IMG/VR virus record: IMGVR_UViG_2541047682_000003 | Strand: one strand, 5' to 3' | Source: a virus | Taxonomy: Duplodnaviria; Heunggongvirae; Uroviricota; Caudoviricetes | Length of the DNA: 24,435 bases | Shown: positions 1,749 through 21,638 of the stretch, piece by piece | How positions within the stretch are numbered: the first letter of the stretch is position 1 | How the letters are laid out: every line of letters begins with the position of its first letter | Made by a program: the position numbers and the translations under genes | Notes under the pieces: model-generated | The model's input: only the letters and a program-made list of their open reading frames with translations | Database searches by the model: none | What the model was told of the DNA's origin: nothing

Positions 1749-2061
1749 TCTTGACCTTGTGTTGTGCGGATTGATATTCAGTGCTGATATTCACCTTTAT
1801 AGCGAACACCTTTACCGGTTTATCGCCAAAGTGCGGATGTGTGATTGTCTTCACTTCATATCCGTCATACGGAACATCAATTCTGCGACTGGAATCGTCG
1901 CGCTTCGGATATCCCTTTGTGATAATCAGGCGGTCATATTCCCGGAACATAATTCGCTTATTCCAGTAGTCATTACACAAGCGATACTCTTCCGTTTTCT
2001 CTCCGCGAATCATGGCATCGAAGTATTCACTTTTAACAGCAAGTTGCAGGTTAGCCATCAC
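1732..2061 (-). CDS. ASCH-like (PUA-fold) domain protein
   Basis: 109-aa ORF containing GEKTEEYR, which matches the ASCH signature GxKxxExR. Its stop overlaps the start of the next gene. Confidence 0.5.
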   Translation of the reverse strand: MMANLQLAVKSEYFDAMIRGEKTEEYRLCNDYWNKRIMFREYDRLIITKGYPKRDDSSRRIDVPYDGYEVKTITHPHFGDKPVKVFAIKVNISTEYQSAQHKVKNVQSD

Positions 2062-2279
2062 TTAATCCCCCTTTGTTTGCGGATAAGCTCCAGATCTTGC
2101 TGGCAACTGGCGCAAGTCCGACAACCCTGAACGGCCAGGCGTCTTCGTTCATCTATCGGATCGCCACACTCACAACAATGAGTGGCAGATACAGCCAGGT
2201 AGTTCAGGCGGCGCATTTTTATTGCTGTGTTGCGCTGTAATTCTTCTATTTCTGATGCTGAATCAATGATGTCTGCCAT
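2058..2279 (-). CDS. TraR/DksA-family C4 zinc-finger protein (lambda Orf73-like)
   Basis: 73-aa ORF with CxxC...CxxC (CCECGDPIDERR...CRTCASCQ), the hallmark of TraR/DksA-type proteins. Lies in the same exo-xis position as lambda orf73. Confidence 0.8.
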   Translation of the reverse strand: MADIIDSASEIEELQRNTAIKMRRLNYLAVSATHCCECGDPIDERRRLAVQGCRTCASCQQDLELIRKQRGIK

Positions 2280-2329
2280 CTTTCATTAATCCCTGAACTG
2301 TTGGTTAATACGCTTGAGGGTGAATGCGA

Positions 2330-2356
2330 ACAATAAAAAAGGAGCCTGTAGCTCCC
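2330..2356 (-). terminator. Putative intrinsic terminator (minus strand)
   Basis: Hairpin GGAGC-CTGTA-GCTCC (2341-2355) followed on the minus strand by TTTTTTATT. Confidence 0.4.
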
Positions 2357-2472
2357 TGATAATTTTGCTTTTCATGTTCATCGTTCCTTAAAGACGCCGT
2401 TTAACATGCCGATTGCCAGGCTTAAATGAGTCGGTGTGAATCCCTTCAGCGTTACCGTTTCGCGGTGCTTCT

Positions 2473-2655
2473 TCAGTACGCTACGGCAAATGTCATTGAC
2501 GTTTTTGGAAACTGCTGTCTGACTTTTTTGATTTCAGAATTAGCCTGACGGGCAATGCTGCGAAGGGCGTTTTCTTGCTGAGGTGTCACTGAACAAGCCC
2601 CATGTCGGCAAGCATAAGCACACAGAATATGAAGCCCGCTGCCAGAAAAATGCAT
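2473..2655 (-). CDS. Small exo-xis region protein (lambda orf61 position)
   Basis: 60-aa ORF in the conserved order orf60a-orf63-orf61 downstream of exo. Confidence 0.45.
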   Translation of the reverse strand: MHFSGSGLHILCAYACRHGACSVTPQQENALRSIARQANSEIKKVRQQFPKTSMTFAVAY

Positions 2656-2665
2656 TCAGTGGTTG

Positions 2666-2857
2666 TCATACCTGGTCTCTCTCATCTGCTTCTGCTTTCG
2701 CCACCATCATTTCCAGCTTTTGTGAAAGGGATGTGGCTAACGTATGAAATTCTTCGTCTGTTTCTGCTGGTATTGGCACAAACCTGACTCCAATTTGAGC
2801 AAGGCTATGTGCCAAATCAATACTCGTTCTTAACTCAACAGGAGATGCTTTGTGCAT
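2666..2857 (-). CDS. Small exo-xis region protein (lambda orf63-like)
   Basis: 63-aa ORF; size and position match lambda orf63. Confidence 0.5.
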   Translation of the reverse strand: MHKASPVELRTSIDLAHSLAQIGVRFVPIPAETDEEFHTLATSLSQKLEMMVAKAEADERDQV

Positions 2858-3018
2858 ACCGCCCCCCGTTTATTATTTATCTCCTCAGCCAGCCGCTGGG
2901 CTTTCAGCGGATTTCGGATAACAGAAAGACCGTGAAATACCCAGCCTCGCTTTGTAACGGAGTAGACGAAAGTGATCGCGCCTACCCGGATATTATCGTG
3001 AGGATGGGTCATCGCCAT
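2830..3018 (-). CDS. Small exo-xis region protein (lambda orf60a-like)
   Basis: 62-aa ORF (60 aa from the second Met) overlapping the 3' end of exo, as orf60a does in lambda. Confidence 0.55.
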
Positions 3019-3689
3019 TGCTCTCCAAATACAAAACCAATTTCAGCCAGTGCTTCGTCCATTTTTTCGATGAACTCCGGCACCATCTCGTCAAAACTCG
3101 CCATGTACTTTTCATCCCGTTCAACCACGACATAATGCAGGCCTTCACGCTTCATTCGTGGGTCATAGTTGGCAAAGTACCAGGCATCTTTTCGTGTCAC
3201 CCACATGCTGTACTGCACCTGGGCCATGTAAGCCGACTTTATGGCCTCGAAACCACCGAGCCGGAACTTCATGAAATCCCGGGAGGTAAACGGGCATTTC
3301 AGCTCAAGGCCATTGCCGTCACTGCATAAACCATCGGGAGAGCAGGCGGTGCGCATACTTTCGTCGCGATAGATGATCGGGGATTCAGTAACATTCACGC
3401 CGGAAGTGAATTCAAACAGGGTTCTGGCGTCGTTCTCGTACTGTTTTCCCCACGCCAGCGCCTTAGCATTAACTTCCGGAGCCACACCGGTGCAAACCTC
3501 AGCCAGCAGGGTGTGGAAGTAGGACATTTTCATGTCAGGCCACTTCTTTCCTGAGCGGGGCTTTGCTATCACGTTGTGAACTTCTGAAGCGGTGATGACG
3601 CCGAGCCGTAATTTGTGCCATGCATCATCCCCCTGTTCGACAGCTCTCACGTCGATCCCGGTACGCTGCAGGATAATGTCCGGTGTCAT
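3009..3689 (-). CDS. exo: Lambda exonuclease (Red-alpha)
   Basis: 226-aa ORF that matches lambda Exo almost residue for residue as recalled ([36 protein letters not shown]...). 4-nt overlap with bet. Confidence 0.97.
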
Positions 3690-4992: not shown

Positions 4993-5125
4993 TTTTTGGG
5001 ACTCCTGGCTGATTAAGTATGTCGATAAGGCGTTTCCATCCGTCACGTAATTTACGGGTGATTCGTTCAAGTAAAGATTCGGAAGGGCAGCCAGCAACAG
5101 GCCACCCTGCAATGGCATATTGCAT
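4961..5125 (-). CDS. cIII: CIII (FtsH/HflB protease inhibitor)
   Basis: Hand-translated 54 codons from ATG at 5125: [54 protein letters not shown], then TAA at 4963-4961. Below the ORF-track length cutoff. Confidence 0.85.
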   Translation of the reverse strand: MQYAIAGWPVAGCPSESLLERITRKLRDGWKRLIDILNQPGVPKNGSNNYGYPD

Positions 5126-5197
5126 GGTGTGCTCCTTATTTATACATAACGAAAAACGCCTCGAGTGAAGCGTAATTGGTATGCGGTAACGCCGCGC

Positions 5198-6744: not shown

Positions 6745-7045
6745 TTAGCAAATGAATTTATCATCTCGCCGTCAGTTGTTTTGATTTCCGGTAGCCTGCC
6801 GCGTAAAGAGCTACGTTCGGAAGACAAGTTGAACCTTCATATTTTCTGGTCAACGTTGTCAGAGTTATCACTTCTGCTCTCATTGCTGGTTTGAGCTTGC
6901 ATTGCAAGACCACTCGTGAAGGGGTTGGCCTGTGTAGCTTGTCGGAGCTGATCGCCTCCTGACTTTGCAGATTTGCGCGACGAGCTCTACGGCGAGAAGC
7001 TGCGGTGCCTTTAAATGAAGTGGTCAACAAAAACTGGCCACCGAG

Positions 7046-8193
<1,148 letters not shown>

Positions 8194-8384
8194 TATGGCA
8201 CCTGTGTTGTTCTGAGGTGAGCATATCACCTCTGTTCAGGTGGCCAAATTCAGTAAACCACTTCAAAATTCTGTTTTTCTGGACATGGATTCCTCCCGAA
8301 TAAACTTTGGCGATGCAATCTCGAAGCTCCTCCTGAGACGGTTGCTTCGGCATTGCATCCCACAGCTTATGTGGTTGGGTGATC

Positions 8385-19201: not shown

Positions 19202-19495
19202 TTATTGTGAGCAATACACACGCGCTTCCAGCGGAGTATAAATGCCTAAAGTAATAAAACCGAGCAATCCATTTACGAATGTTTGCTGGGTTTCTGTTTT
19301 AACAACATTTTCTGCACCACCACAAATTTTTGCTGCATCGACAGTTTTCTTCTGCCCAATTCCCGAAACGAAGAAATGATGGGTGATGGTTTCCTTTGGT
19401 GTTACTGCTGTAGGTTTGTTTCCAACAGTAAACGTCTGTTGAGCACATCCTGTAATAAGCATTGCCAGAGCGGCAGAAAACAACATTTTTTTCAT
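19202..19495 (-). CDS. bor: Bor lipoprotein (serum-resistance)
   Basis: 97 codons from MKKMLFSAALAMLITGCAQQ (lipobox); matches lambda Bor as recalled. Confidence 0.92.
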   Translation of the reverse strand: MKKMLFSAALAMLITGCAQQTFTVGNKPTAVTPKETITHHFFVSGIGQKKTVDAAKICGGAENVVKTETQQTFVNGLLGFITLGIYTPLEARVYCSQ

Positions 19496-19677
19496 CTTAT
19501 TATCCTGCATTGTTAAAAACGGCAGAATCCTATGTGACAACAATTAAACGATAGTTAAATGGATTGATGAAAATTAAAACTACACAGGTGGGCTCAGACT
19601 ATTGGAGGAAGTTGGGGACACTCAGAATCCTGTGGAATGAAATAAACCGGTCTATCCGTCCATTACTGGATTTGCCC

Positions 19678-20583
19678 CTATATTTCCAGACACCTGTTAT
19701 CACTTAACCCATTACTGGCTTGCTGCCGCAGATATTCCCGTGGCGAGCGATAACCCAGTGCACTATGCGGATGCCATTCGTTATAATGCTCGAACGCCTC
19801 TGCAAGGTTCTTTGCTGCCGTTAACCCGTCTGGTTTGGGCATGACACTGATGTAGTCACGCTTTATCGTTTTCACGAAGCTCTCTGCTATGCCGTTACTC
19901 TCCGGACTCCGCACCGCCGTGCTCTTCGGTTCAAGCCCCAACATCCGGGCAAACTGCCGTGTTTCATTAGCCCGGTAGCATGAACCATTATCCGTCAGCC
20001 ACTCTACTGGAGACGCCGGAAGCTCGTTGCCGAAGCGGCGTTCCACCGCTCCCAGCATGACGTCCTGTACTGTTTCACTGTTGAAGCCGCCCGTAGTGAC
20101 CGCCCAGTGCAGTGCCTCACGGTCACAGCAGTCCAGCGCGAACGTGACTCGCAGTTTTTCTCCGTTATCACAGCGGAACTCGAACCCGTCAGAGCACCAT
20201 CGCTGATTACTTTCTTTCACAGCCACTCTGCCTGTATGTGCCCGTTTCGATGGCGGTACAGCAGGTTTTCGCTCAAGCAACAGCGCATTCTGGCGCATGA
20301 TCCGGTAAACACGTTTGGCATTGATCGCAGGCATACCATCAAGTTCTGCCTGTCTGCGAAGCAGCGCCCATACCCGACGATAACCATACGTGGGCAGCTC
20401 TCCGATAACATGGTGTATACGGAGAAGCACATCCGTATCATCAGTGTGACGACTGCGGCGGCCATCCATCCAGTCATCGGTTCGTCTGAGAATGACGTGC
20501 AACTGCGCACGCGACACCCGGAGACAACGGCTGACTAAGCTTACTCCCCATCCCCGGGCAATAAGGGCGCGTGCGCTATCCAC
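19678..20583 (-). CDS. insD: IS2 InsD (OrfB transposase)
   Basis: 301-aa [26 protein letters not shown]...; overlaps insC for the frameshift fusion. Confidence 0.92.
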
Positions 20584-20906
20584 TTTTTTGCCCGTCCATA
20601 TTCAACGGCTTCTTTGAGGAGTTCATTTTCCATCGTTTTCTTGCCGAGCAGGCGCTGGAGTTCTTTAATCTGCTTCATGGCGGCAGCAAGTTCAGAGGCA
20701 GGAACAACCTGTTCTCCGGCGGCGACAGCAGTAAGACTTCCTTCCTGGTATTGCTTACGCCAGAGAAATAACTGGCTGGCTGCCACACCGTGTTGCCGGG
20801 CAACGAGGGAGACCGTCATCCCTGGTTCAAAGCTCTGCTGAACAATTGCGATCTTTTCCTGTGTGGTACGCCGTCTGCGTTTCTCCGGTCCTAAGACATC
20901 AATCAT
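20541..20906 (-). CDS. insC: IS2 InsC (OrfA, HTH)
   Basis: 121 codons from [25 protein letters not shown]... Confidence 0.9.
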
Positions 20907-21311
20907 CTGCTCTCCAATGACTAGTCTAAAAACTAGTATTAAGACTATCACTTAAATAAGTGATATTGGTTGTCTGGAGATTCAGGGGGCCAGTCTAATT
21001 ACCCTTTTAGCTGCGCTGTATCGTCGCCGTATTCCCGCATTAACCATGACCGTAGCCCGACGGGGAATTCCTTCTGCGTGAGTGTGCGGGAATAATTAAA
21101 AACGATGCACACCGGGTTTTTACCGCGTTAATGATTCGCGGGTTTATCCCGGTGCGATGGTGGAAGAAACAGGAAGCTGTATTACAGAAAGTGCTACTAC
21201 TGTATCCCGATGCGATGTATGTAATGTGAGTCAGATAATGGCACAGGATGTGGTGATGTGGCAGTCTGGAACACAGGATATATTGTCAGAATAAGACCCG
21301 TAGGAATAAAA

Positions 21312-21638
21312 ATGAAAAGACGCCTTTTACTACTTTTTCTGTTATCTGTCCTGGCAGTGGGATGCTCGCAGCAAAAAGCTGATGAGCCCCGGCAATTAGT
21401 GACGGTGTATCCACGATATCCGGAATATGCTGCAGCAAATTATATCAAGGGGCTGGTTGAGGTTAAGTTCGATATTGGTGCTGATGGGACTGTGACACGG
21501 ATCGTTTTTCTCCGCTCAGAGCCTCATAATTTGTTTCGTGATGAAGTGGTGAAGGCCATGGCGAAATGGCGATTTGAAAAGAATCGCCCCTGTCAGGGAG
21601 TGAAGAGACAATTTATCTTTACGCCGTCACGTCCTTGA
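21312..21638 (+). CDS. Lipoprotein consisting of a TonB C-terminal domain
   Basis: 108 codons from MKRRLLLLFLLSVLAVGCSQQ (signal peptide + lipobox, RBS AGGA). The remainder aligns with the TonB C-terminal domain as recalled (YPRYPEYAAANYIKGLVEVKFDIGADGTVTRIVFLRSEPHNLFRDEVVKAMAKWRFE vs TonB [54 protein letters not shown]). Confidence 0.75.
   Translation: MKRRLLLLFLLSVLAVGCSQQKADEPRQLVTVYPRYPEYAAANYIKGLVEVKFDIGADGTVTRIVFLRSEPHNLFRDEVVKAMAKWRFEKNRPCQGVKRQFIFTPSRP

Follow-up and report, generated by a model that had tools for sequence, protein, structure and literature searches.

A complete IS2 lies in non-coding DNA between bor/iss and a gene for a putative TonB_C-domain lipoprotein in the window, the whole 24,435-nt stretch analyzed here, which represents the immunity-to-terminase part of a lambdoid prophage. 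Comparison with complete E. coli genomes indicates that the insertion is a simple, recent, clone-specific event, and the explanation we judge likely as a whole is that of an ordinary, near-neutral insertion through which late transcription reads. IS2 would have entered by its normal copy-out/paste-in route via a minicircle intermediate, generating the 5-bp ATTAC duplication that flanks it. It interrupted no gene, and the predicted core promoters on either side stayed in place; most likely it is a passenger that affects bor/iss and the TonB_C gene little or not at all, with Q-modified RNA polymerase expected to traverse the element. An insertion of this type is an ordinary, already well-understood kind of event. 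The coordinates of the features are collected in Table 1.

Table 1. Positions of the features discussed, numbered along the window except where another locus is named.
Feature	Position	Strand	Description
IS2	19667-20997	-	1331 bp, complete; strand is that of the transposase
Target-site duplication, left copy	19662-19666	.	ATTAC; single ATTAC in the empty allele
Target-site duplication, right copy	20998-21002	.	ATTAC; read directly from the sequence
IS2 right inverted repeat (IRR)	19667-19707	-	41 bp; tip at 19667; placed by comparison with the K-12 IRR
IS2 left inverted repeat (IRL)	20956-20997	-	42 bp; tip at 20997, toward the TonB_C gene
insD/orfB	19678-20583	-	301 aa, rve DDE domain; differs from K-12 InsD at 8 residues
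insC/orfA	20541-20906	-	121 aa, HTH_Tnp_1; identical to K-12 InsC
A6G (AAAAAAG) programmed -1 frameshift site	20583-20589	-	fuses orfA and orfB into the transposase
bor/iss	19202-19495	-	97-aa lipoprotein; Lambda_Bor in Pfam, named iss by PGAP; same strand as the IRR and downstream of it
Predicted bor/iss core promoter	19527-19561	-	PhoP-like box CATTTA-ACTAT-CGTTTA (19545-19561), 12 nt, -10 TAGGAT (19527-19532); placed by homology
TonB_C-domain putative lipoprotein gene	21312-21638	+	108 aa; ATG at 21312, 314 nt from the IRL tip
IS911-like element (PGAP: ISEc52)	7016-8265		1250 bp; 3-bp duplication AAA, flanks 7013-7015 and 8266-8268
Sister-allele IS2, AHB22 locus	14189-15519
Sister-allele IS2, AH21I008 and ESBLEC_HM50 loci	1989-3319

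A position-by-position comparison with IS2A of E. coli K-12 (NC_000913, 381260-382590) gave 31 mismatches and no indels (97.7% identity). With its length, an identity of at least 95%, terminal repeats, two overlapping ORFs with a frameshift site and a 5-bp duplication, the element is a full-length isoform of IS2 (IS3 family). The 1331-bp size, ORF layout, A6G site, ends and 5-bp duplication are like those of IS2A, from which the copy differs by the 31 base substitutions, including one base of the IRR and an AA to TT change at the center of a palindrome, and by the eight changes in InsD. The terminal 41 bp of the IRL are identical to those of IS2A, and the single difference in the IRR lies 27 nt from the tip. 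Directly after the left ATTAC, the IRR reads TGGATTTGCCCC... (TGGATTTGCCCCTATATTTCCAGACA...) on the plus strand, and on the strand of the element it terminates in ...GGGGCAAATCCA, ending CA-3´, with the one internal change. The IRL begins TAGACTGGCCCCC... on the strand of the element, starting 5´-TA, and appears reverse-complemented on the plus strand at 20997 as ...GGGGGCCAGTCTA (...GATTCAGGGGGCCAGTCTA). The imperfect terminal inverted repeat was recovered independently by a repeat finder.

Both coding regions gave strong Pfam matches (HTH_Tnp_1 in InsC, E = 1.8e-19; rve and rve_3 in InsD, E = 4.8e-19 and 9e-18). The AAAAAAG heptamer is at IS2 position 409, as in IS2A, and PGAP labels an identical IS2 copy with "programmed frameshift". 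None of the eight InsD substitutions falls at D132, D198 or E234, the putative DDE residues assigned by motif (WCSD, LTDNG and NGIAE) and by their spacing of 66 and 36. The copy is probably still transposition-competent; indirect evidence on this point comes from identical copies at several loci and from the two independent insertions near iss described below. IS2 is multicopy in E. coli, with a median of four places per genome, and among the matches listed this variant was the 100% identical best match in only eight records. The palindrome mentioned above, CACTTA-NN-TAAGTG, lies just inside the IRL and overlaps the reported OrfA repressor binding sequence, with TT replacing AA at 20955-20956 (IS2 positions 42-43).

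The two flanking pentamers agree at 5/5 positions, a match expected by chance about once in 1024. An artificial empty site, built from 500 bp of left flank with one ATTAC and 500 bp of right flank, served as the query against 5426 complete E. coli genomes. The full 1005 bp were matched at 100% in at least 40 listed genomes, Nissle 1917, ATCC 11775 and NU14 among them; across the 5426 genomes, 772 records matched at ≥99% and 814 covered ≥80% of the query. Since the reconstructed site is present verbatim in hundreds of genomes, the ATTAC duplication is not a chance match, and its exact reconstruction argues for simple transposition without later rearrangement. The exact Iss protein is indexed in 31,110 blocks of the collection, and 10/10 representative contexts for it had the 480-bp empty spacer. 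Across the insertion site in the empty allele, the longest ORF has 37 aa, and PGAP annotates nothing between iss and the TonB-family gene of Nissle 1917, indicating that no gene was interrupted. A known RNA at the site was considered and discarded, as no Rfam family maps there; the sole Rfam match in the window is the lambda cIII thermoregulator (RF01804, 88.5 bits), far away at 5080-5138 on the minus strand. These results bear out much of a sequence-only reading of the window, which had described a complete 1331-bp IS2 between perfect ATTAC duplications (exact to the base), a simple transposition, no evidently interrupted ORF and distances of about 170 bp to bor and about 310 bp to the TonB-C lipoprotein gene (171 nt to the bor ATG at 19495 and 314 nt as measured), and which had proposed the comparison with IS-free alleles given here.

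The occupied left junction was found in 1/5426 complete E. coli genomes (CEA212U), versus about 800 with the empty site. The CEA212U IS2 is identical to the window copy at 1331/1331 positions, and the CEA212U prophage is otherwise uninterrupted. The rarity of the junction, together with the complete identity of the copy to copies elsewhere, indicates that the insertion is recent and clone-specific. The window also carries a second IS, 94% identical to elements annotated as IS911, which divides the gene for the N antiterminator behind codon 7 (minus strand, with the N start at 8286) and should cripple early gene expression. Its junction was found in 0/5426 complete E. coli genomes; the element is missing from CEA212U and is located in sieB instead in AHB22. 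The earlier suggestion that IS2 and IS911 together mark the prophage as an old resident is contradicted by these counts, and the rare junctions, with an IS2 copy identical to others, point to both insertions as recent events at the level of the strain or clone. IS2A of K-12 (in yaiX; locus positions 53-65 and 1392-1399) also is flanked by ATTAC, followed on the right by C to give ATTACC as here, which is either a coincidence or a hint of IS2 target preference.

The 480-bp spacer is divergent, with the IRR facing bor/iss (PF06291, E = 1.1e-30; lipobox LITGC in the translation). Both IS2 ends were examined for promoters. In the IS2 minicircle, an outward -35 in the IRR pairs with a -10 at the tip of the IRL at a mandatory 17-bp spacing to give Pjunc (PMC3219604, PMC3299598), and at ampC an IS2 -35 paired with a chromosomal -10 forms a hybrid promoter (Jaurin and Normark, 1983, as summarized in PMC9330008). 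As in both of these cases, the outward -35 of the IRR is directed at a gene that lies downstream on its own strand, here bor/iss; from the stated Pjunc geometry, with which the sequence is consistent, this -35 would be TGGAAA, ending 16 bp from the tip. We then applied the hybrid promoter rule, by which the -10 hexamer must start at the second flanking base to give the 17-bp spacing. In contrast to ampC and Pjunc, the hexamer at this place is TAATGG, which is without the invariant final T. As a -10 it scores -2.6, only within the top 20% of hexamers; in combination with the -35 it reaches 0.1, versus 8.4 for Pjunc scored alike. A hybrid -10 at the right spacing, the feature tested, is absent here, and with TAATGG at that spacing no hybrid promoter is predicted for the ATTAC allele. 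Our -35/-10 weight-matrix scan is noisy (the median best score is 6.7 per 300-nt stretch, and 36% of stretches reach 7.5), so weak promoters may still be present. A consensus scan reported no promoter at either junction, with one site in the region versus 2.6 expected from shuffled sequences. Promoter prediction across both ends, which had been recommended with the earlier proposal of altered bor or moron expression, thus gave that proposal no sequence support. The TonB_C gene retains 314 bp of native upstream DNA. A candidate promoter at the IRL/duplication junction directed toward it (TTGTCT-18-TCTAAT, score 6.5) was rejected on account of a -10 without the essential A at position 2 and its absence from the stricter scan.

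The native bor/iss promoter could be placed by homology. About 65 bp upstream of the start codon are homologous to lambda bor and to borD of the K-12 prophage DLP12, both of which have an intact PhoP box (TGTTTA-GGGTT-TGTTTA, a perfect match) followed after 12 nt by TACGAT; in lambda this lies upstream of bor at 46752. The predicted promoter in the window likewise has a direct-repeat box 12 nt from TAnGAT, but the box is degenerate, matching at 9/12 positions; unlike in lambda, the DNA further upstream, where IS2 is located, is not homologous. borD is a member of the PhoP regulon (PMC5740661), though not mentioned in PMC2650801, and a box with a -10 at this spacing corresponds to "architecture I" of PhoP-activated promoters (PMC3335776). 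Given the degenerate box, iss and bor may not depend on PhoP to the same extent. The predicted core promoter is intact, as the end of IS2 lies 105 bp further upstream; any elements located beyond those 105 bp, such as DNA acting in silencing or curvature, would have been moved 1.3 kb away. The top weight-matrix candidate for the native bor promoter, TTAATT-18-TATCGT, was dropped, since the scores are noisy and the PhoP box with its -10 has homology to lambda and K-12. Two publications, one dealing with the svsR small RNA (PMC12803456) and one with prophage phiv142-3 (PMC7724020), were set aside as not relating to this locus.

Among the alternatives to a near-neutral insertion, the one that survives best, though we regard it as unlikely, is that IS2 alters bor/iss expression by read-through across the IRR, a weak junction promoter or the loss of upstream silencing DNA, and is kept for serum survival in extraintestinal E. 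coli. The orientation and the 171-bp distance to the start codon are compatible with this possibility, IS2 is an established -35 source for hybrid promoters, as recounted in PMC9330008 from Jaurin and Normark, 1983, and with no terminator-like site predicted between insD and bor, transcription from PIRL could extend into bor/iss. However, PIRL is a weak promoter repressed by OrfA (PMC3299598), a reporter assay detected no promoter activity from the isolated IS2 right end (PMC12095673), and neither the TAATGG hexamer, with its score of 0.1, nor the intact predicted core promoter 105 bp away favors a change in expression. The single occurrence among 5426 genomes gives no sign that the allele has spread. 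A further observation in favor of altered expression comes from a second clone, including blood isolates, in which an identical IS2 inserted independently.

This second clone is represented by AHB22, from a blood culture in the UK, AH21I008, from blood in Melbourne, and ESBLEC_HM50, from a rectal swab in Malaysia. Its IS2 is identical and identically oriented, but is inserted 112 bp nearer to iss and is flanked by GATAG. The three genomes share an usher::IS2 insertion that is absent from CEA212U, indicating that they constitute one clone. The AHB22 prophage region is near-identical to that of the window, with seven mismatches over about 16 kb outside the IS positions, and has the same intergenic spacer. 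Derivation of the GATAG allele from the ATTAC allele by a local hop and recombination was rejected, since recombination between two direct copies would delete the 112 bp between them and leave unlike pentamers, whereas in AHB22 the 112 bp are retained and GATAG flanks the element at either end. The sequences therefore indicate two independent IS2 insertions into the iss-TonB_C spacer.

The GATAG allele differs from that of the window in that IS2 has entered the 5-nt spacer of the PhoP-like box, splitting the box. It also matches the ampC hybrid-promoter geometry, which the ATTAC allele does not, with TGGAAA-17-TATCGT, where TATCGT is in the top 0.8% of hexamers as a -10 and the combined score is 7.5, a value reached by 36% of 300-nt stretches. 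The GATAG allele thus plausibly provides a candidate hybrid promoter for the serum-survival gene iss, and of the two alleles it is the better candidate for IS-driven iss tuning. Were the ATTAC insertion to alter bor/iss expression after all, it would be a natural example of a serum-survival gene tuned in this way in bloodstream E. coli. As a near-neutral, clone-specific IS2 in non-coding prophage DNA, it serves chiefly to mark the strain or lineage and to caution annotators.

Two insertions within 112 bp are suggestive, and only suggestive, of a regional IS2 preference or hotspot, or of selection on iss expression; by a rough estimate that assumes thousands of independent events in the collection, two IS2 events this close have a chance of a few percent to about 10%. 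A broader proposal would be that, in extraintestinal E. coli, an active IS2 variant lands in this spacer repeatedly and with a bias in orientation, with insertions retained because they retune Iss expression, in the window by read-through or insulation from upstream DNA and in the sister allele by replacement of a PhoP-type promoter with an IS2 hybrid promoter. We consider this proposal improbable.

The position of IS2 in the late region raised the further possibility of polarity. Q (quuD) is followed in order by an ompC-like porin gene, S, R and Rz (holin, endolysin and spanin), bor/iss (antisense), IS2, the TonB_C gene, a small hypothetical gene, cos (at about 22400 by homology to the lambda right end), Nu1 and A. 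The element thereby lies inside the Q-dependent late transcription unit, from the lysis cassette to cos and terminase, and is antisense to the late transcript. Located between Rz and cos/Nu1, an antisense, untranslated IS2 might reduce expression of the terminase and head genes and help to inactivate a prophage that also has an IS in N, and IS2 is classically polar through rho-dependent termination. However, Q-antiterminated late transcription in lambdoid phages resists both rho-dependent and intrinsic terminators, no intrinsic terminator is predicted on the plus strand within IS2, and CEA212U has the same IS2 in an otherwise uninterrupted prophage. We find a polar effect slightly less probable than altered bor/iss expression, itself unlikely. 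That a multicopy repeat open to misassembly was collapsed or misplaced into the prophage is extremely improbable given the perfect 5-bp duplication, the exactly reconstructed empty site and the same junction in the independent complete genome CEA212U.

Several observations were made on the surroundings of the IS2. The ompC/nmpC-like porin gene (16329-17471, minus strand), between the Q antiterminator gene and the lysis cassette, is another lysogenic-conversion-type gene of the late region; in the corresponding region of CEA212U it is annotated as ompC. The iss gene, the 480-bp spacer and the TonB_C gene are linked to at least three different holin/endolysin/Q cassettes, and the unit behaves as a conserved module in mosaic lambdoid prophages. 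Folding of the conserved block beside the insertion site was no better than that of shuffled sequences (z = -1.3 and -0.65). This block of about 110 bp (21009-21119) starts 6 bp rightward of the insertion site, shares 83% identity with the stretch of lambda from bor to lambdap78 at 46865-46974, and contains a 10-bp perfect inverted repeat (21030-21039 and 21085-21094). With lambda homology in the block on the right and none in the DNA on the bor side, IS2 is located at a mosaic boundary.
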